Of a stretch of DNA of 56,709 nucleotides, positions 10,476 through 38,356 are shown in pieces; position 1 is the stretch's first letter; every line of letters starts with the position of its first letter. This DNA comes from Ignavibacteriaceae bacterium. GTDB taxonomy: Bacteria > Bacteroidota > Ignavibacteria > Ignavibacteriales > Ignavibacteriaceae. The DNA is taken from the NCBI GenBank assembly GCA_046704565.1, contig JBJKRP010000148.1, forward strand, positions 1 through 56,709, written 5' to 3'. The position numbers and the translations under genes were made by a program. The notes beneath the pieces are model-generated. The model worked only from the letters and a program-made list of their open reading frames with translations, made no database searches and was not told the DNA's origin.

Positions 10476-13400
10476 TTGACGCCCGAAGAGCTCGATGATT
10501 TACTAAAGGAAGCTTACGAACATCTGAGGCAAGGCAGATACCGCATGGCGTTAACTGCCGCCAAACAAGTTTATGATGAGAGGCAGTACGATTACAACGC
10601 AGCCTCTTGTTTAGCTTGGGCGCTGCTGGAAAACGGTTATCCCTCCCAGGCGCTTGAGATGGCAAATCTTGCAGTGCAAATAAGCGGAGAAGACGTAAAC
10701 TCCAGGTTGTACCGCGGCTTTCTTTTAATGAGGATGAGCATTTTTGATGGTGCAATTTCGGACCTCGACTGGGCAATCAGGAAGAAGCCGGACCAGCTTG
10801 TTTGGGCACATCTAAATAAAGCAAGAGCACTGGGAGGATTGGAAAGATTCTTTGAAGGTCTTGAAGAAATTAATAAAGCAATCGAGATTGATAAAGGCGA
10901 AACACAAAAGCTATCAAAAATCAGGGACTGGTTTAGAAAAACTCTCGGATATGACGAAGGATTTTTCAGCGGAATCTTTTCAAAGAAAAGATCTTTAATG
11001 AAAGAAGGCGAAGAAGCTCTCGGCGATAAGGAAGCGTGGTTTTCTCTTTGGGTTGCAAGAGATACTCTTAACACACCTTCATTAAAGGATGAACATGAAG
11101 ATGCTCATTTATTGGAGCTGAAATCATTATTAGAAATGTTCCAGATCAAAAATGCTTTTCAGAAGGCTGAGTCTGTAAAGGCAATTTTGCAGGATGATGT
11201 TCGTTTTAAGGCTCTGTATGCTAAAATCCTTAAGCAGTACAGCGGCGAACCCTCAGAAATATTTGAGGAAGAATTAATTGAGCCAGTCCAAAAACGCACT
11301 GATGCCGAAATTTATGAAAACAAACTTTTTCACGTTTACCAGGTTAAAACTTACGACTTAATTGAAAACCTGAGAGCAGGAAAGAGAACTTATCTGTTAC
11401 AGTTCAGCGAAGAGACAATCCGTTATATAGGAGTTGAAATTGTTCTTGACAATCCATTTTCCGGGAACAAGAGCATTGATGTTGAAGGCACCGCAATCTG
11501 GTATTTGAACGAAGCCGAGGTAGGTCAGCATCATTTTACGCTTGGAATGGAGAAAGACTGGAAAGTTGTTGAGTTTGTTCAAAGCTGGGGAACCGAGAAG
11601 CCGGGCTTCTGGAAGGAAGGTCAAGGGAAGGTTGATATATATTTGGACAACTATCTCGTTTGCAGCCGCTGGTTCCTGGTAGGTCAATCAGAGATTTTTA
11701 ATTTCGAAGAAGCTCAGGTTCATCTTGATGAATCGGAGCCGCTTGAAAAGCCGGTTACAGAACAGCCTACCGAGGTGAGCTCATCTTCCTTAAAGCCGCA
11801 GGAAGAAAAATCCCTTGAAGAATTATTGGCTGAGTTAGATACTTACATCGGTCTGCAAGGCGTAAAACAATCGATGAGAGACTTTGTCGATTATTTAAAA
11901 TTTCTAAACGAAAGAAAAAAGCTTGGATTAAAGACGCAGGAAAGCTTCAGCGTTCATTCTGTATTCCTCGGTAATCCGGGAACCGGCAAGACATCAATTG
12001 CGCGTTTGCTTGGTAAAATTTTTAAGGCAATGGGGCTTCTTAAAAACGGACATGTTATTGAGGTCGACCGCTCCGGTATTGTTGGGCAGTACATCGGCGA
12101 GACGGCGCAGAAGACCAACAAGGTAATTGACGAGGCAATCGGCGGACTTCTATTCATAGATGAAGCTTACATGCTGAAGAAAGAGGGTAACGCCCAGGAT
12201 TTCGGTCAGGAGGCAATCGACATTTTACTGAAGCGAATGGAAGACGGCAAGAGTGAGTTTGCTGTTATTACCGCCGGTTACCCGGAGGAAATGAATTCAT
12301 TCATCAATTCAAATCCCGGACTGAAATCGCGCTTCAGCCATTTATTTAATTTTGATGATTACACGCCCGAAGAACTCGTGGAAATCTTTAAGCTCTTCGC
12401 GGACAGAGAAGAATACTCAGTGCATGAACAGGCATTAGAAGCCCTGAAAAAACAGTTCACCAATCTTTACAGGAAGAGAGACAAATCGTTCGGCAATGCA
12501 AGACTTGTTAGAAATTATTTCAACGAATCTAAAATCCATCTCAGCAAGCGCTATTTGAAGATACCCGAAAATGAGCGCAACAAAGAATCGATGACAACTA
12601 TTCTAAACGAAGATGTTCTTGCAATTATTCAAAGCGGAGGAATTAAAGATGCAAAGATTGGAATTGACGAAGAAGCTTTGACCAAGGCGTTAAACAAACT
12701 AAATAACCTAATCGGTATGGAGCCGGTAAAAAAAGAAATAAACGAGCTTGTGAAGCTGGCAAAATTTTATTCCGAGCAGGGCGAGAATCTTCACGACAAA
12801 TTTTCTTCACACATAATTTTTCTCGGGAACCCGGGAACCGGAAAGACGACGGTTGCCAGGCTCTTCAGCGAAATTTATTCTGCGCTCGGTATTCTACCAA
12901 AGGGACATCTTGTTGAAGTGGACCGGCAGGGCTTGGTTGCAAGCTTTGTCGGACAAACTGCGGAGAAGACAAAAGCAGCAATAGATAAGGCAATCGGCGG
13001 AACGTTGTTTATAGATGAAGCATACACTCTGATCAAATCGGGCGAAGGCAGCGGAGCGGATTTCGGCAAAGAAGCGCTTGATACTCTTCTTAAAAGAATG
13101 GAAGACGACAGGGGAAAATTTGTTGTAATTGCTGCGGGCTACACAAATGAAATGAACAGCTTCATCAACTCGAACCCGGGGCTTCAATCCCGCTTTACAA
13201 AAAGAATATTCTTTGAAGATTATTCACCGGAAGAACTGATGCAGATAACCGAAAATCTTTTTGAAAGCAAAGGACATATTCTTGACGAAGAAGCACGTGA
13301 GCCGTTAAGAAAATATTTCAACAAGATCTACCGCAGCCGCGATAAGACATTCGGAAATGCAAGGCTTGTTCGAGACCTGGTAGAAAGCACGTTGAAAAAC

Positions 13401-20678: not shown

Positions 20679-21092
20679 ATGGAATTTACTCAACTAGACA
20701 GGAGTAACTACTTAAAGGGACTTTTAGTTGTCGCAAAGAAGGATAACCGTCTAACGGAACCCGAAAAAGTTATTCTCAAAGGGATAGCAAAAAAACTGGG
20801 CTTTGCTTCCGATTTTTATGAAGACACTATCCGCGGGCTTCTTGCAAACAAATATATTTCCGAAAGCCCCATAAAATTCTCCGACAGAAAAATAGCCGAA
20901 TCATTTGTAGTTGACGGACTTAATCTGGCGTTTGCGGATAATCTTCCAGCAGAACAAGAAATTGATTGGCTGCGTTCAACTGCCTTCGTAAATGAATTAA
21001 AACAGGATTGGTTTGACTTAAAGATGAAAAGTCTAAAAGAGGTAATGAAATCAAAACCGGACAGCGACATGGCTCTGTTTTCAATAATTTAA
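20679..21092 (+). CDS. TerB/DjlA-N-like small helical protein
   Basis: LKGLLVVAKKDNRLTEPEKVILKGIAKKLG resembles TerB-like repeat helices. Weak assignment. Confidence 0.3.
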   Translation: MEFTQLDRSNYLKGLLVVAKKDNRLTEPEKVILKGIAKKLGFASDFYEDTIRGLLANKYISESPIKFSDRKIAESFVVDGLNLAFADNLPAEQEIDWLRSTAFVNELKQDWFDLKMKSLKEVMKSKPDSDMALFSII

Positions 21093-23685: not shown

Positions 23686-25032
23686 TCACTGCCGCAGGTT
23701 ATATCTTTTTATCTTATTGTACAGGGTAACTCTGTCAATCTCCAGCACCTGAGCACTGCGCGAAATATTCCATTTGTTTTCATTCAGCACTTTGTAGATA
23801 TGCTTTCTCTCTATAGCGGAAAGGCTCATGTCGCCGTCATCTACTTCAAAATGAATTGAAGAAATTCGGATCGGCAAGTCTTCAACATTAATTTCATCAT
23901 ACCTTCCAACAACAACAGCACGCTCAATCGCATTCTCAAGTTCCCGTACATTGCCGGGCCAGTCGTAATTAACAAGAAACTCTGCGGCTTCCGCGGATAT
24001 ATCTCTTGCAGGTTTATTTAATCTATTCGAAAATTTTTTTATGAACGCCTTAGCCAGCAGAATTATATCTTCCCGCCTATCACGTAAAGGCGGAACCAAA
24101 ATTGAAAAAACCTTGAGCTTATAAAACAGATCCTCTCTGAACTTGCCTTCATTCATTAACTTTTCGAAATTTGAATTCGCAGCAGCTATCAATCTAAAGT
24201 TTGTGTTTACGGGTTCGCTTCCGCCAATACTTAAGAACTTATTTGTCTCGAGCACCTTTAATATCTCAACTTGAATCTTCGGCGAAATTGAATTTATCTC
24301 GTCAAGATATAGAGTACCGCCTTCTGCCAATTCAAAGCTGCCTTTCTTCCGCAGATGAACTCCTCTTTCCACGTCCGGTTCTTCTCCGAACAATTCCTGC
24401 TCAAGCATTGCTTCGGTCAAGGCTCCGCATTTTACTGAAATAAACGGAAAATATTTCCTGCTGCTGTTGGTATGAATTACTTTTGCCAGCAGCTCTTTTC
24501 CCGTGCCGCTTTCTCCAAGTATCAGTGTCGAGGCATCCGTTGCGGAAATTGTACTTATCGTCTCAAACAATATTTTCATTTGCATATTTTCTCCGATAAG
24601 TAAATCCGGCTTTGAAATGCTTGCGATATTTTCTTTCAAGGACCTGTTCTCAATCTGAAGCTTTCTTTTGTCAATTGCCTTCTCAACAAGGATAGTCAGC
24701 TCATCCGGGTCTACCGGTTTAGTGACATAATCATAGGCGCCTTCCTTTAAAGCTGCAATGGCTGTAGGAACGGATGCAAAAGCAGTAATCATAATAACTA
24801 TTGAATCTTGATCCAATGCTTTAATTTCTTCTAATAACTGCAGTCCGCTTATTCCGGGCAATTTTAAGTCAACCAATACAACATCATATTTTTGCTTTTG
24901 AAATTTTTCCAAGCCGGATTCGCCGTCCCCGGCAATTTCAACAAGATAGCCTTCGTTCTCGAACCAGTTAAATAAAGATTCCCGAATAATCTTTTCGTCA
25001 TCAACAACCAATATTCTCTCTCTTTTATTCAT
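23686..25032 (-). CDS. NtrC-family response regulator (REC + AAA+ + Fis-type HTH) lacking the GAFTGA loop
   Basis: REC domain (DDE...VDLKLPG...KP), Walker A GESGTGKE, Walker B LYLDEI, GNVRELEN, and C-terminal HTH ISRSAQVLEIDRVTLYNKI. Where GAFTGA is expected the sequence reads ELFGEEPDVERGVH. Confidence 0.85.
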   Translation of the reverse strand: MNKRERILVVDDEKIIRESLFNWFENEGYLVEIAGDGESGLEKFQKQKYDVVLVDLKLPGISGLQLLEEIKALDQDSIVIMITAFASVPTAIAALKEGAYDYVTKPVDPDELTILVEKAIDKRKLQIENRSLKENIASISKPDLLIGENMQMKILFETISTISATDASTLILGESGTGKELLAKVIHTNSSRKYFPFISVKCGALTEAMLEQELFGEEPDVERGVHLRKKGSFELAEGGTLYLDEINSISPKIQVEILKVLETNKFLSIGGSEPVNTNFRLIAAANSNFEKLMNEGKFREDLFYKLKVFSILVPPLRDRREDIILLAKAFIKKFSNRLNKPARDISAEAAEFLVNYDWPGNVRELENAIERAVVVGRYDEINVEDLPIRISSIHFEVDDGDMSLSAIERKHIYKVLNENKWNISRSAQVLEIDRVTLYNKIKRYNLRQ

Positions 25033-25724
25033 TTCAATTCTTTCCCAATTTATTAAAAGAATGTTAAGATTTTATAGCCGGCTTTTATGATTGGAAATGT
25101 ACTAATAGAACCGGCAGCAAAGATTTTTTCGTAGTACACTTTAAAATAAAGGGTCATCACGATTTTAATTAAACGGTATTCATCTTTCTGAGCCCAGGAA
25201 TGCATTTTCGAAAAGTGAATTTCGGATGAAAAATATTTCATTATATCTAACGAGTTCCCAGCCATTAAAAGCCCCTTTCAAACCTTCCAAAATTATCTGA
25301 AGTCATTAATACAAACTGCGAGCCAATTCATTCTTAGATATCTCTCGCTCCCATAGTTATTCTTAAATAGGTAGGCAGTTTTTCTGCAATTTCAAGACAT
25401 AAGGGTTAGAATTTGTGGGAATATAGTTAATAGGTTTACAATTTTTTCTGATTACCAAAGAATTGTTTGCCTCTGGCAATTATTGGCAAACATTCAATAT
25501 CCCGATTATAAAATCAAAAAATTCTTGAACACAAGGAATCTACAAGCCACAAACTGCCGGTTTTGTTTCTCACTAACAGCAAACTTTTTTTACCTGTATT
25601 GCCACGGATGAGAAAGATTAATTCACTTATCCATACAAAAAATTTTAATTTCATTAAAAAGTGAGAGAGGCTAATTGAAAGTCTCTATAGAAATAAATCA
25701 GCCGTGTAATCGCATTAAAAACTA

Positions 25725-26264
25725 TTAGCTGCAGAAATATTTGTAGGCTTCAACATGATCGGCGCAACTTCGGCAGTAACCGTTTCCTTTTATATCCACT
25801 TCTTCAATACCGGGAGAAGAATGCATTACACAATCCCAATCAGTACAATGACGAAGACCGAAGTTATGACCGAGTTCATGCAGTATTTCTTTCATCGTTC
25901 TTTCCAAAAGCAGATTGTTGTTAGATTTACCGGAATAAAATTCTTCGTGCAGCCTGCATACAGAGACTATAGAATGCTTTCCGTCGAGCTGAGCCTCGCC
26001 GAAAACAAATGTAAGCACGGGGACAAAAATATCTACGTCGGTTATTAAAATTATTTTGCCGTCTACGTTATTCGTTAGCTCCATTGCCCTGGCAATTACG
26101 CCGGTAGAATAGTATTGCCCCCTTTCTTTAGAAAGGAAATTTTCAAGCTCCAGGTTCAATTCTAATAATTGCACCTGAGAGGTAAACATTTTAGATAGAT
26201 TAACTAAAATGTTTTTGAGCAGCCAGGCGTTCGAAAATCTTACCGGAACAATAAAGATGTTCAT
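25725..26264 (-). CDS. Archaemetzincin-type zinc metalloprotease (peptidase M54-like)
   Basis: HELGHNFGLRHCTDWDCVMH...CRSC matches HExxHxxGxxxCxxxxCxM...CxxC. The start codon overlaps the upstream regulator's stop by 1 nt (TGATG). Confidence 0.7.
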   Translation of the reverse strand: MNIFIVPVRFSNAWLLKNILVNLSKMFTSQVQLLELNLELENFLSKERGQYYSTGVIARAMELTNNVDGKIILITDVDIFVPVLTFVFGEAQLDGKHSIVSVCRLHEEFYSGKSNNNLLLERTMKEILHELGHNFGLRHCTDWDCVMHSSPGIEEVDIKGNGYCRSCADHVEAYKYFCS

Positions 26265-27619
26265 CAGTCGGCATTTTTTTGAAGGTTATATTTATTGATT
26301 TTATTATAGAGAGTAACACGGTCAATTTCCAACACCTGAGCGCTGCGCGAAATGTTCCAATTATTTTCGTTCAGTATTTTGTTGATGTATCTCTTTTCCA
26401 TAGCAGCAAGGCTTTTGCACTCCTCATCAAAGTATAAGTTGTTTAACGAAACATGGAACGGCAAATCTTCAACAAGGATAGAGTCCGTCTTTCCAACGAC
26501 CATTGCTCTCTCAACAGCATTTTCAAGCTCGCGAACATTGCCCCGCCAATCATAATTAATTAAGAAATCCATAGCCTCCTTTGAAACACCTTTTACCGAC
26601 TTGTTCATCATTAATGAAAATTTATTGATAAAGAAATTTACCAGCAGCGGTATGTCATCTCGCCTTTCGCGCAGCGGAGGTATAATAATAGAAAAAACAT
26701 TCAGCCGGTAATATAGGTCTTCCCTAAACTTTCCTGCTTTCACGAGCTCTTCAAGAGGTTCGTTGGTCGCAATAATAACTCTGAAGTCGCTTTTAATAAG
26801 TTCGTTGCCGCCTACCCGGTTAAATTGCTTTGTTTCTATCACACGCAGCAGCTCTATCTGCATTTTGATTGAGATAGAACCGATCTCATCAAGAAAAATA
26901 GTCCCGCCGTCTGCAAGCTCAAACTTGCCTTTGCGCCTGAACTGCGCACCCGTAAATGCGCCCTTCTCATGACCGAACAGCTCGCTCTCAAGAATTGTTT
27001 CTGCTAAAGCCCCACAGTTAACCGGGATTATCGGAAAATATTTTCTCTTACTGTTAATGTGGATTGCCTTTGCTACAAGCTCTTTACCGGTTCCACTCTC
27101 GCCTCTTATCATTACAGTAGTGTCTGTCGGCGCAACAGTTTGAATAAGATCATAAATTTTCTTCATCTGGTAGCTCTCGCCGATCAAATTGTCCGGTCTG
27201 ATGATCTCGTCGATGCTTTCCTTCAAGTGAATATTTTCAATCTTCAGCGCTCTCTGCTCAAGAGCCTTTTTTACCAGGTGAGCAAGCTCGTCCGGGTCGA
27301 CCGGCTTGGTAACATAATCATAGGCGCCGTTTTTAAGAGCAGCTATTGCAGTCGGAACGGATGCGAAAGCGGTAATAAGAATTATCACCGAGTCTTTATC
27401 GATTGATTTAATCCTGTTCAATAGTTCAATACCGCTCATCCCGGGCATTTTCATGTCAACCAGGAGAAGATCAAATTTAGTCTCTTCATATTTCTGCAGA
27501 GCTATTTCTCCATCCCCGGCAGTATCAACATCGTATCCTTCTTCTTCGAACCAGTGGAAGAGAGATTCTCTTACGATCTTTTCATCATCCACAATTAATA
27601 TTTTTTCCTTTTTATCCAT
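26264..27619 (-). CDS. Sigma-54-dependent response regulator (NtrC family)
   Basis: REC domain, GESGTGKE, an intact ELFGHEKGAFTGAQ, GNVRELEN, and HTH ISRSAQVLEIDRVTLYNKI. Confidence 0.9.
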   Translation of the reverse strand: MDKKEKILIVDDEKIVRESLFHWFEEEGYDVDTAGDGEIALQKYEETKFDLLLVDMKMPGMSGIELLNRIKSIDKDSVIILITAFASVPTAIAALKNGAYDYVTKPVDPDELAHLVKKALEQRALKIENIHLKESIDEIIRPDNLIGESYQMKKIYDLIQTVAPTDTTVMIRGESGTGKELVAKAIHINSKRKYFPIIPVNCGALAETILESELFGHEKGAFTGAQFRRKGKFELADGGTIFLDEIGSISIKMQIELLRVIETKQFNRVGGNELIKSDFRVIIATNEPLEELVKAGKFREDLYYRLNVFSIIIPPLRERRDDIPLLVNFFINKFSLMMNKSVKGVSKEAMDFLINYDWRGNVRELENAVERAMVVGKTDSILVEDLPFHVSLNNLYFDEECKSLAAMEKRYINKILNENNWNISRSAQVLEIDRVTLYNKINKYNLQKNAD

Positions 27620-27627
27620 TTAATTAC

Positions 27628-29220
27628 CTAAGAAATATTCTCGTTTGCAGGCAAGATCAATCTGAATGTCGTTCCTTTAAGCGAAGTCTTTTCAACCTCT
27701 ATTGAGCCGTTGTGGTTTGTAACAATTCCGTAAACTACCGCCAGCCCAAGACCGGTTCCCTTTGAAGCTTCCTTAGTGGAATAGAACGGCTCGAAAATAT
27801 GCGGAAGGTCTTTGTTCGAAATGCCTGTCCCCTCGTCAATTATCCTGATAACCGCAGCATTATTTTCCCAGGCAAGTCGAACAACTATCTTACCTCCTTG
27901 CGGCATTGCTTCAATCGCATTAATTAGCAGGGACATTAAAGCCTGTTGAACTTTCTGTGCGCTGCAGTTAATCTCAATTGTCTCAACAGGATATTCCTTC
28001 TCAATTGCAACGTGATAGATTTCAAGATGGTGCTGTATTACCGTTATGCTCTTGTCTATTATCCTGGTAAGATTCTCCCTTGAAAACTCATCTCTTTCTT
28101 CATGAGAGAACAGCAGCAGGTCTTTTACTATTTTCCCGCAGCGCGAGGATTCGCCTGAAATCAGCTCAAGATATTCTATTAATCTCGAATACTCCGAATC
28201 TCTCTGCATCGATTGAAGCTTCCTGGTAATCAGCTTGCTGTAAGTCAAAATACCTTCCAGCGGATTGTTAAGCTCGTGTGCAACTGTTGCTGACAGCTTT
28301 CCTAGCGATGCAAGCTTTTCAATCTGATTTACCTGGTTATAAATATTTTTTAGCTCTTCCGTCTTTTCATTCACCTTATCATTTAAGGTCTCGGACCAAT
28401 TTTTAATTTCCTTGTATGCATCATCAAGTTTTACAGACATATCATTAAATCTATGCGCAAGCTGTCCGAGTTCATTTTGGGTATCGAGATCAATTTTATA
28501 TGAAAGATTCCCCTTGCTGATTTCTTCAATCCCTTTGGTAAATTTTTTAATCGGTCTATTGACAAGTACAGTAATGAATAGTCCGCAGAAGAAAGAAATT
28601 ACAAGGGTAATCAATAATGCATTTAGAATAATTTCCCTGGTATTCTTCGCTATAATCGCATCAAGCTTGTCCAGCCCTACCACAACATCAAGTACACCAA
28701 GTATTTGAACATTGGGTGAATGCGCATGGCAGGCGGCATTGTAGCAGTCAGGCTCATTCTGGATCGGATTAATTAGACCGAGCACTCTTTTGTTTTCAGG
28801 ATTCCTGTAAATACGGATTTTGTTTTGATTGTTTAAGCTGTTTAAAGGCACATTACTATTGTGGCAAACAATGCATGCCTCGGCTGACATGTCTACCTTT
28901 TTCATTATTTCTGCAGTATCAGTCGAGAATATTATCATCCCCTGCTTATTGTAAATTCTGATATTATTAACACCCATCTCGGTTCCGAGTGTCTTAATAA
29001 TTTCATGTACGTCTTCACGGCGGTTCAGGAGCATGCTGTAACGCGTCGACTTCTTAATCAAGTCGCTGATATTGTATGCACTTTCAAGACGTGATTCGGT
29101 TAAATATCCGTCAAGATTCCTCACGATAAAATATGTGTACGCGGCAAGAATGCTGAAGAGTATCAGAGAGATGGAAACTATAAGTCTTACACTTAATTTA
29201 TTTATCAACTTAGTTGTCAT
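27628..29220 (-). CDS. Sensor histidine kinase with periplasmic c-type heme-binding motifs, HAMP domain
   Basis: TM1, then a periplasmic domain with CIVCH (CxxCH) and CYNAACH (Cx4CH), then TM2 and a HAMP domain. Kinase motifs are H-box VAHELNNPL, N-box LLINAIEA, DEGTGI and GTGLGLA. Confidence 0.85.
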   Translation of the reverse strand: MTTKLINKLSVRLIVSISLILFSILAAYTYFIVRNLDGYLTESRLESAYNISDLIKKSTRYSMLLNRREDVHEIIKTLGTEMGVNNIRIYNKQGMIIFSTDTAEIMKKVDMSAEACIVCHNSNVPLNSLNNQNKIRIYRNPENKRVLGLINPIQNEPDCYNAACHAHSPNVQILGVLDVVVGLDKLDAIIAKNTREIILNALLITLVISFFCGLFITVLVNRPIKKFTKGIEEISKGNLSYKIDLDTQNELGQLAHRFNDMSVKLDDAYKEIKNWSETLNDKVNEKTEELKNIYNQVNQIEKLASLGKLSATVAHELNNPLEGILTYSKLITRKLQSMQRDSEYSRLIEYLELISGESSRCGKIVKDLLLFSHEERDEFSRENLTRIIDKSITVIQHHLEIYHVAIEKEYPVETIEINCSAQKVQQALMSLLINAIEAMPQGGKIVVRLAWENNAAVIRIIDEGTGISNKDLPHIFEPFYSTKEASKGTGLGLAVVYGIVTNHNGSIEVEKTSLKGTTFRLILPANENIS

Positions 29221-29318: not shown

Positions 29319-30044
29319 TTAGCTGATTAGAGCTTGAAGTATGCCGACGTATTTTTCCCGCCCAACAAGTTGATGTAAATATTTAACTTGATCGCCTCCG
29401 TCAAGCATAGTAAGCCCGACTTCCGGATAGTTTGATTTAATCTCTTCGACAATCCCAAATGATTTTTTCTGTAGCACCTGCCATTCGCTATGTTCTATCC
29501 TCCCGGCAGAAACTTCCTGCTCAATAGCACCGATTATAGCTATCCATTTTGACTTTGCAAGATCATCGGCTGGATTATTAACCTTATCGTAGATGGAAAA
29601 GTTCATCGGTGCGGTTAAGGAGCTTGTTCCCCACTCACCGAAGAACTGAACGACGGGCTGCCCGCTTAAGATGCTTCTGCTTTGACTAAAATCCATAATT
29701 ATTCCGACATGATCGAGGAATGAAATGAAGAGAGGATTAACCCCGAGATAATAAGTATTTGGCAAAACCTGTTTGATAATAAAACAATGCTTTAAGTAAA
29801 TAAATTTTTCATCATACTTAATTGATTTCAGTCTTCTTTCAACTAAGTTGACGGCGCTCAGGATGTTATTTGTCTGCATCTCATTCTCGCCGTAGTTTCT
29901 CATTACTTTATCGAACCGGCAATTTTCACAGTCAAACTTTTTATCGCACAGCTTGTATTCAATAACATTAGACGCCATCCATATGCACTTCAGCAAGCCG
30001 TAAGAGTTATCGGAATAAAAATTATCTTCGTTCATTTTACTCAC
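29319..30044 (-). CDS. Cys-rich N-terminal domain fused to a GcvH-like (lipoyl-fold) domain, no lipoyl lysine
   Basis: N-terminal C-x12-C-x5-C-x2-C motif (CIWMASNVIEYKLCDKKFDCENC). The C-terminal half aligns by eye to GcvH (LGVNPLF..., SGQPVVQFFGEWGTSSLTAPMNF, KWIAII), with Trp at the lipoyl-Lys position. Confidence 0.5.
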   Translation of the reverse strand: MSKMNEDNFYSDNSYGLLKCIWMASNVIEYKLCDKKFDCENCRFDKVMRNYGENEMQTNNILSAVNLVERRLKSIKYDEKFIYLKHCFIIKQVLPNTYYLGVNPLFISFLDHVGIIMDFSQSRSILSGQPVVQFFGEWGTSSLTAPMNFSIYDKVNNPADDLAKSKWIAIIGAIEQEVSAGRIEHSEWQVLQKKSFGIVEEIKSNYPEVGLTMLDGGDQVKYLHQLVGREKYVGILQALIS

Positions 30045-30210
30045 TTAAAATTAATCGTTTAGATTTTGCCTTACTATTTCTTTTTTGTCTTTGAAAGAAG
30101 AAAGCCCCCATTAAGATCTCAAGATATATTTGGCATCAATTATTGCAGAAGATATAAAAGCATTGCTACGGAAATTACAGCCATTATTTTTCTTTGATTC
30201 GAAAATTATT

Positions 30211-30483
30211 TTATTCGCTTTGATTTTGTTTCTTATTAGTCTCAGCAGTTTTTTCATCTGTAATATCAATCCCGGAGCTTTTATTCACCTCTTTGTTTTC
30301 TTTCGATTTACCGCCGTCATACATTGTGGCTCCTACGAGACTAATGATAGGCTCTGTATTACTTGTTGAAATTTTTTCCATACGCTTACCCTTTGACTTT
30401 AACGCCATCGGATTAATTATAAGTTGAACGAAAAGGTCAACTGCAGCAAAGACAAGGATTAGAACTAATATAAACGTAAGCAT
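30211..30483 (-). CDS. Small single-pass membrane protein, hypothetical
   Basis: The ATG follows AAGGAA. The N-terminal TM helix is MLTFILVLILVFAAVDLFVQLI, followed by a charged tail. It competes with an antisense ORF at 30130-30369. Confidence 0.35.
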   Translation of the reverse strand: MLTFILVLILVFAAVDLFVQLIINPMALKSKGKRMEKISTSNTEPIISLVGATMYDGGKSKENKEVNKSSGIDITDEKTAETNKKQNQSE

Positions 30484-31086
30484 GACATATTCCTTATTTC
30501 TATCTGTTACTTTATCCTAAAAAATCAATTAATATACCATAAAGAAAATATGATTTCCCCTTTTCGTAAGAGTATGACAGGTAATGAGTTATAGAGTTTC
30601 CGGAGAATATCTAAATAGAATGGAATTAAAAAAATGTAGGCATATTCAACAGTCTTATGTTGAATTTTCCGTCAAACAACGGAGTCTTTCATTACTGCGC
30701 TTGCATCTTTTTCCTGCAGAATTATAATCGTAGGCGAGAAAAAATTAATTGCGCATTAACAACTATTTTTATTTAGCAATTGAAATAAGTATACCAGACG
30801 AAAAAAAGGATCAGAGAATTTCTTTACAAATCCCAAAATAAATTCTCAAATACAACAATAGAAACCGAGATGTGTTGCCATTGGTGAGAAGCCTTTTATT
30901 ACATTAAACAGAAAAAATTTTTCAAAGGTTTTATTCCATTTAAATTTTAATGTTTATAAAAATTAAGAAATAGAAATATTGCAGGTAACAGTTCTTGGCA
31001 TACTTTTATATAAACTTCAAAGGTCGAATTAACTAAATAATAGGACATAAGTAAAAAATTAATTTTTCACGAAGAAAGAGGGTAAG

Positions 31087-36342: not shown

Positions 36343-37149
36343 ATGAATAAACAATTCGACATATTGATTATAGACGACGAGCAAGTTATTACCGAAGCAG
36401 TAAACAAAATCTGTTCGGCGGAAGGATACAGGGTCGACTCGAGCCTTGATGCCGCAGATGCAATCATTAAACTTGAAACGAATTTTTACCGCTTGATATT
36501 ATGCGATATAATGCTTCCGGGGATGGACGGATTCCAGTTTCTCGATGAGGTCTCTAAGAAAAAAACTATTTCGCCCGTTATAATGACTACTGGGTTTTCG
36601 ACAGTAGAGAATGCCGTTAAATCATTATACAACGGGGCAATAGATTTTATACCGAAACCGTTTACAGCCGATGAATTACTTTCATCCGTCTCACGCGGCT
36701 TAAAATATTTGGAAATTCAAAAAAAATTATTCGAGACGGGAAGCCGCAGGAATGATGAATCTATAATCTATGTTCCATGTCCGGCTAAGTATTACAGACT
36801 TGGTTATTCAAGCTGGGTTAACTCAGATACCTCAGGCTCTGCTGTTGTAGGAGTTACGGATTTATTCCTTAAGACCATCGCTTCAATAAACGGAATTGAC
36901 TTGCTAAAGGTCGACGGCGAAATAGTGCAGGGAAATTCATGTGCTCAATTAAGCTCAAAGGAATATTATTCCCATGCAGTGTTAAGCCCGGTCAGCGGGA
37001 GAATAATAGAAAGGAACGAAAGCCTGATTGAAGAAATTAACACCATCGAAAAAGACCCGTACTTTAACGGATGGCTTTACAGAATAATACCATCCGATTG
37101 GCAGTACGAAATACAAAACTTAATACCGTGCAGTTCGGATAGAATGTAA
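36343..37149 (+). CDS. Response-regulator receiver fused to a GcvH-like domain
   Basis: REC domain: IIDDE, LCDIMLPGMDG, MTTG, PKPF. The C-terminal stretch VVGVTDLFLKTIASINGIDLLKVDGEIVQGNSCAQLSS...SPVSGRIIERNESL...DPYFNGWLYRI aligns to the GcvH core VGITxxAQ...PVSGxV...PYxxGW. Confidence 0.7.
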   Translation: MNKQFDILIIDDEQVITEAVNKICSAEGYRVDSSLDAADAIIKLETNFYRLILCDIMLPGMDGFQFLDEVSKKKTISPVIMTTGFSTVENAVKSLYNGAIDFIPKPFTADELLSSVSRGLKYLEIQKKLFETGSRRNDESIIYVPCPAKYYRLGYSSWVNSDTSGSAVVGVTDLFLKTIASINGIDLLKVDGEIVQGNSCAQLSSKEYYSHAVLSPVSGRIIERNESLIEEINTIEKDPYFNGWLYRIIPSDWQYEIQNLIPCSSDRM

Positions 37150-37198: not shown

Positions 37199-38356
37199 AT
37201 GCCACTTTTAATTATTGCAGTTATATTATTTGTTATCGCCGATGTATTGATAAGATACTCGGGTAAAAGGATACAGGAAAAGAAGCTACGCAAAGACCGC
37301 GAAGCCGCTTTAAACGTAAGTTTGAATCTTGATTTTACAAGAGAGGCAAAGTCCTTAAAACGCGTTGAAGTTGAAAGTCCTAAAGCTAAAATTTTATGTG
37401 TTGATGACGAGCCGGTAATACTCGACAGCTTCCGGAAAATTCTTGTGCTTGAAGGATATTCGGTTGATACGGTTGAAAACGGAAAGGAAGCAGTAGGGCT
37501 GGTTCAAACACATCATTATGATTTCGTTTTCACCGACTTAAAGATGCCGGAAATGGACGGAGTTGAGGTTACCAAGTCCGTAAAGCACATAAGACCCGAT
37601 ATTGATGTTGTAATCATAACCGGGTACGCTACTGTTGAAACCGCCGTTGAGTGTATGAAGTTCGGTGCAATGGACTATGTACAGAAGCCTTTCACCGAGG
37701 ATGAACTGCTTGACTTCGTTAAGAAAATTTTAATTAAACGGCAGGATAGAATTCAGAAACAGTTGAAACCGCAGGTTCACATCACTCACTTCGCCGAATC
37801 TAAACATTTTATGACTTACGAGTTCGCTATTCCTGGAGGAGTTTTCATCTCCGCAGGACACTGCTGGGCAAGCATGGAACAGGACGGCGCCGCAAAAGTA
37901 GGTATCGATGACTTTGCCAAAAAGCTCATTGGTAAAATTACCGGTATCGAGCTTCCCAACCTGGGAATGGTTGTTAAAGCCGGACAGCCGTTGTTTACAA
38001 TTAAACAGGATGACCGCAGTGTCGCATTCAATTCGCCGTTGAGCGGCAAGGTAATTAAAATTAATACTATCCTGCCGACAAATCTTGAAGTCCTTGATGT
38101 TACCTCATATAATACCAACTGGATTTGTGTAATTGATACTGAAGATTTAGATAGTGAACTAAAAACCCTGAATATCGGCAAGAGCGCAGTCACTTTCTAT
38201 CAGGATGAAATAGACAGGTTCATTCAGCTTAGGAAAAATATTCCGGTTAAGGATAGTTCGCAGACCCAGAGGAACAACGAACTTTATATAGGAGAATTTG
38301 AAAAGCTTGATAATGCCGACTGGGACAAGATGGTCACAGAGTTATTCAAAAAATAA
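37199..38356 (+). CDS. Membrane-anchored receiver domain fused to a GcvH-like domain
   Basis: N-terminal TM helix MPLLIIAVILFVIADVLI, then a REC domain (CVDDE, FTDLKMPEMDG, ITGY, QKPF). The C-terminal stretch KVGIDDFAKKLIGKITGIELPNLGMVVKAGQPLFTI...SPLSGKVIKIN is GcvH-like. Confidence 0.7.
   Translation: MPLLIIAVILFVIADVLIRYSGKRIQEKKLRKDREAALNVSLNLDFTREAKSLKRVEVESPKAKILCVDDEPVILDSFRKILVLEGYSVDTVENGKEAVGLVQTHHYDFVFTDLKMPEMDGVEVTKSVKHIRPDIDVVIITGYATVETAVECMKFGAMDYVQKPFTEDELLDFVKKILIKRQDRIQKQLKPQVHITHFAESKHFMTYEFAIPGGVFISAGHCWASMEQDGAAKVGIDDFAKKLIGKITGIELPNLGMVVKAGQPLFTIKQDDRSVAFNSPLSGKVIKINTILPTNLEVLDVTSYNTNWICVIDTEDLDSELKTLNIGKSAVTFYQDEIDRFIQLRKNIPVKDSSQTQRNNELYIGEFEKLDNADWDKMVTELFKK

Follow-up and report, generated by a model that had tools for sequence, protein, structure and literature searches.

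What remains for an enhancer-binding protein (EBP) to do once the loop that contacts sigma-54 is gone? The question is raised by two neighboring genes in a 56,709-nt contig of an Ignavibacteriaceae bacterium (assembly GCA_046704565.1, contig JBJKRP010000148.1; the whole stretch is hereafter called the window). Gene A (23686..25032, minus strand) encodes a 448-aa NtrC-family response regulator without the GAFTGA motif, while gene B (26264..27619, minus strand) encodes a 451-aa canonical, GAFTGA-bearing sigma-54 activator which, according to the phylogeny described below, represents the parent lineage of A. An earlier note on this DNA had proposed two NtrC-type paralogs at these positions, and both are indeed real open reading frames (ORFs) in which Pfam finds the same four domains in the same order: Response_reg (PF00072), Sigma54_activat (PF00158), AAA_lid_14 (PF25601), and HTH_8 (PF02954). 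The PF00158 score is 178.7 bits for A versus 232.7 bits for B (cutoff, 20.2), and the match in A spans residues 145 to 311 and 167 of the 168 model positions. A and B are 61% identical across 448 residues, with zero gaps. With its receiver (REC), AAA+, and HTH_8 architecture and its DD...D...T...K receiver residues, A belongs to the NtrC family of response regulators. Sequence comparisons indicate that it is a conserved, neofunctionalized duplicate of the sigma-54 activator B that lacks the contact loop and two ATPase-site residues, and that it probably occupies the DNA sites of B without the ability to activate through sigma-54.

The sigma-54 contact loop (L1) of A is replaced, not deleted. 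Over residues 213 to 231 (nt 24340-24396), A reads ELFGEEPDVERGVHLRKKG and B reads ELFGHEKGAFTGAQFRRKG; the alignments with B, with PspF, and within the clade of A place the L1 loop EEPDVERGV at residues 217 to 225 (24358..24384, minus strand), where B has HEKGAFTGA. E217 is the counterpart of PspF H80 at the start of the L1 region, the GAFTGA position itself reads PDVERG, and PspF F85 and T86 are represented by E222 and R223. Substitution at equal length had already been claimed in the earlier note, and the gap-free alignment of A with B bears this out; the check that it had suggested, an alignment to known EBPs, confirms the loop position with both PspF and NtrC1 and reveals no GAFTGA variant.

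To place A among its relatives we used a set of 121 proteins, made up of the best 120 homology-search matches and B of the window. Forty distinct proteins of the 121 lack GAFTGA (A-likes), and none of these 40 has any GAFTGA-like motif, while 80 of the 81 B-likes have G[A/S]FTGA. The L1 sequences of the A-likes vary (EEPDVERGV, EEAGAESGS, EEAGT-AGN, EDPGTSDGN, VEPNAVLGS), with the loop at full length in 22 proteins and one residue short in the other 18, a pattern that fits released constraint and not a new contact surface. The remaining B-like, P0023, has GAVSGA for GAFTGA and keeps the Asn and Arg at the positions of PspF N64 and R168; this could be either a sequence error or an early step of this sort taken independently.

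The ATPase site of A was compared with those of NtrC1, with the numbering checked against the published residues E239, N280, R299, and R357, and of PspF, to which A aligns by BLASTP at a constant offset of 137 (the PspF sequence is 100% identical to that of PDB entries 2vii/2bjw). Walker A, Walker B, and GNVRELEN are retained, as the earlier note had stated. In Walker A (GESGTGKE, residues 173 to 180; 24493..24516, minus strand), G173, G176, G178, K179, and E180 are invariant across the A clade. Walker B (D244 E245, equivalent to PspF D107/E108; 24298..24303, minus strand) is DE in 40 of 40 A-likes and directly follows the clade-specific L241 Y242. Sensor I N286 is present in A and in 33 of the 40 clade members; sensor II R363, which corresponds to PspF R227, is present in all 40.

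The same note had also described an intact AAA+ core with a retained R-finger region, and this part does not stand: A has K305 at the position of PspF R168, K201 at that of N64, and K259 at that of R122. Both the NtrC1 and the PspF alignments show that the RxDxxxR motif reads RxDxxxK in A (R299-E-D301-L-F-Y-K305; 24118..24138, minus strand). R299 and D301 are equivalent to PspF R162 and D164, and K305 falls on the second Arg of the motif, which is PspF R168 and, in the NtrC1 motif R293-D295-R299, the residue known as the arginine finger of NtrC1 (R299; PMC7175178, PMC3841738). K201 (24430..24432, minus strand; BLASTP to PspF) takes the place of the glutamate-switch Asn, and position 259, which is K or N, corresponds to a trans-acting site residue of PspF. 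Across the 121 proteins the co-variation is complete, with K at position 201 and K at position 305 in 40 of 40 GAFTGA-less proteins and N and R, respectively, in 81 of 81 B-likes. In EBP cores of other phyla, which were collected along with background residue frequencies by scanning contigs with generic peptide patterns, both arginines of RxDxxxR are present in 56 of 56 cases, and Lys occupies the R168 position in none (0/56).

The consequences of such changes are known from PspF. The RxDxxxR motif was termed ubiquitous in bacterial EBPs by Joly et al. 2012 (PMC3419264). PspF R168K has a Vmax of 0.12 versus 39.5 min-1, or ~0.3% of wild-type ATPase, with a Km of >4 mM; it forms constitutive hexamers, and remodeling is abolished, while N64Q and R122A have Vmax values of 1.5 and 1.26, respectively (PMC3419264). 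Because K305 of A lies at the R168/R299 position and R168K cripples PspF, we judge the AAA+ core of A not to be intact. R168K and N64K (PspF numbering) define the A clade as much as the loss of GAFTGA does. By analogy with PspF and NtrC1, we infer that A would be unable to contact sigma-54 region I or to hydrolyze ATP at a useful rate, and it may still bind nucleotide and oligomerize.

The homology search matched only proteins of Ignavibacteria and of Ignavibacteriaceae metagenomes. The A-likes form one side of a single branch (Shimodaira-Hasegawa-like approximate likelihood ratio test [SH-aLRT], 100), and in a tree with 12 outgroup EBPs, all of which have R and a GAFTGA-like motif (its last G is D in two of them), the A clade is monophyletic and nested in a paraphyletic B. 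The clade is still monophyletic (SH-aLRT 99) after the whole AAA+ core is dropped from the alignment, and the trait thus arose once and is no convergence artifact. The root-to-tip distance is 0.99 for A versus 0.44 for B, and for the same genome pairs the nonsynonymous divergence (dN) of A is 2.2 to 4.8 times that of B. The ratio of dN to synonymous divergence (dS) is ~0.08 to 0.15 for A where dS is computable, a rough value given that dS is saturated in most pairs, and at least 130 alignment columns are invariant among the A-likes. With a 40-member monophyletic clade and dN well below dS, A is thus a maintained paralog and not a decaying copy.

Six positions are at least 90% conserved in each clade and yet different (I197F, N201K, H217E, I241L, F242Y, R305K). 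Sixteen positions that B conserves have been lost in A: 15 of these fall within the alpha/beta core of the AAA+ domain, one is a conservative change in the receiver, and the lid and the helix-turn-helix (HTH) domain contain no such position. Mean pairwise identity in the AAA+ core is 0.69 within A versus 0.88 within B; in the HTH, which is better conserved than any other domain of A, it is 0.87 within A versus 0.81 within B. Since the losses are in the AAA+ core while HTH and receiver residues are conserved, selection on A is centered on DNA binding and phosphorylation.

The Fis-type HTH of A (residues 404 to 444; 23701..23823, minus strand; A/B alignment and Pfam) is the same as that of B in NISRSAQVLEIDRVTLYNKI, a segment that is fully identical in the two proteins where the earlier note had called the C-terminal HTH segments nearly so. 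Since related EBPs of other phyla likewise carry the recognition helix DRVTLYNKI, its identity alone is weak evidence that A and B share specificity; better evidence comes from identity across all 41 residues of the HTH region and from the stronger HTH conservation within the A clade than within the B clade. The receiver of A (residues 7 to 115; 24688..25014, minus strand; Pfam and clade alignment) has D11, D12, D55, T83, and K105 intact, and among the A-likes D11, D12, T83, and K105 are found in 40 of 40 and D55 in 39 of 40. Receiver helix alpha-1 is essentially identical in A and B. A sensor histidine kinase with HAMP, HisKA, and HATPase_c domains by Pfam (27628..29220, minus strand) is the sole kinase left in the locus of the window from the two gene modules described below, and helix 1 of its dimerization and histidine phosphotransfer (DHp) domain is identical to that of the HK' kinases paired with A-likes in two related loci (L089 and L090). 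As the kinase-docking helices have not diverged, this remaining kinase probably phosphorylates both A and B.

Eight related loci were retrieved via A-clade proteins. The usual gene order is small ORF, GcvH-like, iron-sulfur protein (FeS), NrfD, p239, kinase, B, M54 peptidase, a variable slot, and A; the slot holds a second GcvH-like gene, p244, or a gap, and kbl and tdh lie beyond A on the opposite strand. The ORFs directly upstream of A are paralogs of module-B genes. The p244 of L003 is 47 to 48% identical to p246 of L089/L090 and only 30 to 37% identical to the p239 proteins. A full second module (GcvH-like 2, p246, HK', and an A-like) stands alone between the same flanking genes in L089 and L090, with no B or M54 gene in the locus. 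HK' is 62 to 69% identical to module-B kinases, which are 76 to 90% identical among themselves. Since the ORFs upstream of A are paralogous to module-B genes and complete second modules exist in L089/L090, an ancestor must have duplicated a four-gene sensor module (GcvH-like, p246, kinase, and regulator), and A descends from the regulator of one copy. B-only loci (L091, L092, L094, and L095) are also found, as are the A-only loci L089 and L090.

In the window, module A has decayed to A and a truncated GcvH-like ORF of 70 aa (25053..25265, minus strand), a relic of the first gene of the module. HK' and p246 are gone, which makes A an orphan regulator here. The truncated ORF matches the N-terminal half of L087 gcvh2 at 51.5% identity (tblastn E = 1.6e-17), has a conserved GGGG-type ribosome-binding site (25263-25279), and stops 20 nt before the ATG of A, inside what had seemed a 690-nt gap upstream of A. 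A full-length ortholog of 136 to 160 aa precedes the A-likes in L087, L088, L089, and L090.

Promoters were recognized by cross-locus conservation alone; a scan with the consensus TGGCAC-N5-TTGCW gave 15 matches at ≤2 mismatches versus 22 expected by chance. Module A has a -24/-12-type promoter, TGGCTCGCAGTTTGTA (25310..25325, minus strand). The motif TGGCTCG-N3-GTTTG(C/T) is located 57 to 60 nt before the gcvh2 start in L087, L088, L089, and L090, and relic copies are found in L003, L005, and L001. A is thus apparently expressed from a -24/-12 (sigma-54)-type promoter. The promoter of module B is of the same type, TGGTATATTAATTGA (30525..30539, minus strand), with GA and not GC at -12; the promoter, of the form TGGTAT(G/A)NNAATTGA, lies 45 to 55 nt before the first module-B gene, and this placement is conserved in all loci. 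In the loci without full-length A (L091, L092, L093, and L095), the same position has canonical versions with GC (TGGCACTATGGTTGCT, TGGTATGCTTATTGCC, CGGCATCTAGCTTGCC, and TGGTATGCTAATTGCC), which identifies these as sigma-54 promoters. At -12, six A-bearing loci have GA or GT, and the four loci without full-length A have GC. The promoter of the divergent FeS-NrfD-cytochrome operon reads TGGCAT-N5-TATAT in the window (30995-31011, plus strand) and is canonical in L093 (TGGCGTACTTTTTGCA); in L095, which is without A, it is likewise noncanonical. The -12 differences may reflect phylogenetic inertia or co-evolution with A.

Other conserved elements follow the two regulators. A TTGCC-N3-GGCAA palindrome in a CAATAATTG-rich context (25467..25479, minus strand), found by cross-locus conservation, has related palindromes upstream of both modules in A-bearing loci and no clear counterpart by eye in the upstream regions of L092, L093, and L095. 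A 48-bp oriented element of fixed length, TTTCTCA-N5-TGG(C/T)AA-N~18-TTGCTG-N3-TGAGAAA, is present upstream of A (25566..25615, minus strand; regular expression and nhmmer, the best match of the window at E = 2.6e-13) and in the divergent control region upstream of module B (30842..30891, minus strand; nhmmer, E = 4.1e-9). There is one copy per module in the window and in L001, L003, L005, and L087 to L090, and nhmmer detects the element in 8 of 8 distinct loci with a full-length A-like and in 0 of 5 of L091 to L095. Rfam has no real match between 24900 and 31200, and the 48-bp element matches no known RNA. A perfect palindrome, TTCAACA-N6-TGTTGAA (30645..30664, no strand assigned), lies ~105 nt upstream of the module-B promoter and is a candidate upstream activating sequence; it is found at the equivalent place in L003, L005, L006, L087, and L092, with an 8-nt spacer in L091, and was not found upstream of module A.

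Regulators without any AAA+ domain also exist. In L093, the slot between M54 and kbl that A would occupy holds a 200-aa REC-HTH_8 protein (11242-11844), whose receiver is a pseudo-receiver (its phospho-acceptor residue is Glu) and whose HTH reads NENKWNISRSAQKLEIDRVTLYNKIKKYNLRK. Proteins of this type make up six protein clusters (P0121 to P0126) from the same contigs as B-likes and form a conserved pseudo-receiver group, in which the phospho-acceptor Asp is replaced by Glu or Gly. Further AAA+-less REC-HTH proteins have canonical receivers and the same HTH and arose independently several times; the ~200-aa REC-HTH_8 proteins P0121 to P0126 and P0127 to P0142 share the HTH WNISRSA..L.IDRVTLYNKI. 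Evidently selection can maintain a receiver and HTH alone at this locus, which suggests that DNA binding by itself is a selectable function.

Taken together, we propose, with a probability of about 0.5, that A is a phosphorylation-controlled, ATPase-crippled DNA-binding regulator that antagonizes or tunes B. Phosphorylation of its receiver, probably by the kinase at 27628-29220, would control a nucleotide-binding, oligomerizing A that binds the same DNA half-sites as B. Without efficient ATP hydrolysis and without sigma-54 engagement, the output of A would be occupancy: A would compete with B at shared upstream sites, form mixed rings with B that are poisoned because K305 cripples the adjacent ATP site, or do both, and the net effect would be to damp or time B-dependent sigma-54 promoters. 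If expression from the -24/-12-type promoter of A is B dependent, a negative feedback loop would result.

Several observations weigh against this proposal. The sole regulator encoded at L089 and at L090 is an A-like accompanied by its own kinase; there it must have an output that does not depend on B, unless B is encoded elsewhere in those genomes, and a pure antagonist of B is therefore unlikely as the universal role. At the six fixed differences the A clade shows conserved replacements (K, K, E, Y, F, L) and not random decay, which suggests a new nucleotide-dependent activity more than a simple loss. The elements that track A (the 48-bp element and TTGCC-N3-GGCAA) differ from TTCAACA-N6-TGTTGAA, which tracks B, and the sites of the two proteins might thus differ despite their identical HTHs. 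The position of the switch Asn, N64, is variable in the 56 outgroup EBPs (N in 40, H in 8, S in 4, D in 3, P in 1), although it is never K. The AAA+-less protein of L093, whose descent from the A clade was tested, falls in a clade of its own and not among the A-likes; it serves as a positional analog only. Finally, the stretch was not found in any public sequencing run.

The competitor or antagonist and the sigma-54-independent activator put forward in the earlier note remain the two leading readings. As a regulator of the latter kind, which we regard as a tentative possibility, A would resemble Rhodobacter capsulatus NtrC (RcNtrC), Caulobacter crescentus NtrC (CcNtrC), NtrX, and VpsR, with phosphorylated, ATP-bound, nonhydrolyzing oligomers acting at housekeeping-sigma promoters to activate or repress. 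GAFTGA-less NtrC relatives are reported to be active at sigma-70 promoters, the invariant Walker A and Walker B and the conserved replacement residues are as expected if nucleotide binding matters, the A-only loci make A-likes the sole output of their kinase, and the 48-bp element and TTGCC-N3-GGCAA occur only where a full-length A-like exists. However, no sigma-70-type target promoter was identified at the locus, whose conserved promoters are all of the -24/-12 type; the known cases, which carry deletions in L1, are orthologous to global regulators and did not arise by duplication within a locus with the HTH left unchanged; and the Km for ATP of >4 mM of PspF R168K speaks against tight ATP-dependent assembly (PMC3419264). 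That A is instead a partner that B requires, or is stimulated by, is unlikely; as with HrpR/HrpS, mixed hexamers would then be the active sigma-54 activator, with B supplying the L1 loops and trans-arginines and A serving as a structural or regulatory spacer. The adjacency of the paralogs, their identical HTHs, and their undiverged receivers would suit such an arrangement; co-dependent EBP pairs such as HrpRS exist (PMC3105312), and subunit specialization in bacterial EBP rings is reported (PMC12054792). Yet the occurrence of both B-only and A-only loci means that neither protein strictly needs the other, and a subunit carrying K305 would cripple the adjacent ATP site. HrpR and HrpS, moreover, both keep GAFTGA.

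Two other explanations are very improbable. The complete A modules of L089 and L090, which follow -24/-12-type promoters at loci lacking B, and the L1 length that is kept in 22 of 40 A-likes could be taken to mean that A still activates sigma-54 through a noncanonical L1; a contact surface would be conserved, though, and the A-likes share no L1 motif, F85/T86 being replaced by E/R in A and by other residues or a gap in other A-likes, while R168K abolishes remodeling by PspF (PMC3419264). A decaying, functionless duplicate is just as hard to credit. The nonsynonymous rate of 2.2 to 4.8 times that of B and the loss of three of the four module-A genes in the genome of the window would agree with decay, but there are 40 distinct, full-length, intact orthologs with at least 130 invariant columns, dN remains far below dS, HTH conservation exceeds that in B, and the clade-specific replacement residues are themselves invariant.

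It is tempting to extend the proposal that A antagonizes or tunes B, although the extended form is doubtful as a whole. The A clade would then consist of natural ATP-binding, hydrolysis-dead ring subunits that act as decoys: served by the kinase of a canonical twin and bound to the DNA sites of that twin, they would set the gain or timing of a heme-sensor two-component system through poisoned hetero-rings or enhancer occupancy. A would be made from a sigma-54 promoter activated by its twin (incoherent feedback) and would have co-evolved with the 48-bp element, TTGCC-N3-GGCAA, and the weakened -12 boxes found only in A-bearing loci, and the AAA+-less REC-HTH proteins would be the end state.

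EBPs without GAFTGA are already established; what is new here appears to be the substituted loop, the changes in both RxDxxxR and the switch Asn, and the in-locus origin with an unchanged HTH and receiver, and the locus seems to show a further reduction to AAA+-less forms. Like RcNtrC and CcNtrC, A has a REC, AAA+, and Fis-HTH architecture, lacks the sigma-54 contact motif, and keeps aspartyl phosphorylation, as judged for A from its receiver residues; in RcNtrC, ATP binding rather than hydrolysis matters. In those proteins, however, L1 is deleted (at least 8 residues), whereas in A it is replaced with little or no change in length; those proteins are the NtrC orthologs of their organisms, whereas A arose in its own lineage by duplication of a canonical EBP within the locus and has the HTH of that EBP; and A, unlike them, also has RxDxxxK and N64K. 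The loss of GAFTGA in A arose inside the Ignavibacteriaceae B lineage and is independent of the losses in RcNtrC, CcNtrC, NtrX, and VpsR. NtrX of Alphaproteobacteria (5m7n) and Vibrio cholerae VpsR (7v2b) are GAFTGA-less as A is and reportedly lack ATP-hydrolysis residues, the sigma-54 independence being theirs. They are far weaker PDB matches to A than NtrC1, with no close relationship, and they have other regulons and ligands (c-di-GMP for VpsR) and no canonical twin with a shared HTH.

The closest solved structure to A is Aquifex aeolicus NtrC1 (4l4u, 1ny5; E = 3.4e-96 over residues 6 to 446). A shares its domain order and type of coiled-coil linker, and its receiver probably represses ring assembly until phosphorylated; NtrC1, unlike A, is a genuine sigma-54 activator, with GAFTGA, N195, and R299. 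At the ATPase site, A resembles the engineered PspF R168K, N64Q, and R122A (PMC3419264), with K305 matching R168K exactly, K201 at N64, and K or N259 at R122; those are laboratory point mutants of a REC-less, GAFTGA-bearing activator, whereas A combines the same sites with GAFTGA loss under natural selection. Pseudomonas syringae HrpR/HrpS, which are likewise adjacent paralogous EBPs, act at one enhancer. In our pair, one partner (A) is disarmed, and either A or B can occur alone. HrpR and HrpS keep a working ATPase along with GAFTGA and have no receivers.

The known GAFTGA-less NtrC relatives are a handful of global regulators with a deleted L1. A and B, in contrast, are a matched pair with the same receiver surface and HTH, in which the effect of losing sigma-54 coupling can be read. 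Natural fixation at the R168, N64, and R122 positions lends evolutionary support to the RxDxxxR and glutamate-switch models, and A offers a natural protein for the question of dominant-negative ring subunits. A new principle would follow if A proves to act as a decoy or within hetero-rings, and not otherwise. Our literature search on EBPs of Ignavibacteria found no paper. The source names for relatives in both clades (e.g., the A-likes P0037 and P0005) are "sigma-54 dependent transcriptional regulator" or "AtoC," and for the A clade the annotation of sigma-54 dependence is, on the residues described above, almost certainly wrong.

Some features of the surrounding genes were also noted. In the B-only locus L091, the M54 gene is followed by a 137-aa ORF that has a canonical TGGCACTATTGTTGGA (10985-11000) 44 nt upstream; equating this ORF with the 137-aa ORF near tdh in the window (20679-21092) was rejected, as the two have no homology. 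In module B of the window, s90 (30211-30483) leads straight to p241 (29319-30044), while relatives carry GcvH-like, FeS, and NrfD genes between the equivalents of s90 and p241 (L087, 944-4609); ~2.6 kb, including a quinone-linked module, is thus missing from module B here (30045-30483 versus L087 944-4609). Downstream of the FeS, NrfD, multiheme-cytochrome, and kinase operon that diverges from module B, Pfam identifies two response regulators with a GCV_H-fold output domain (36343-37149 and 37199-38356, plus strand).

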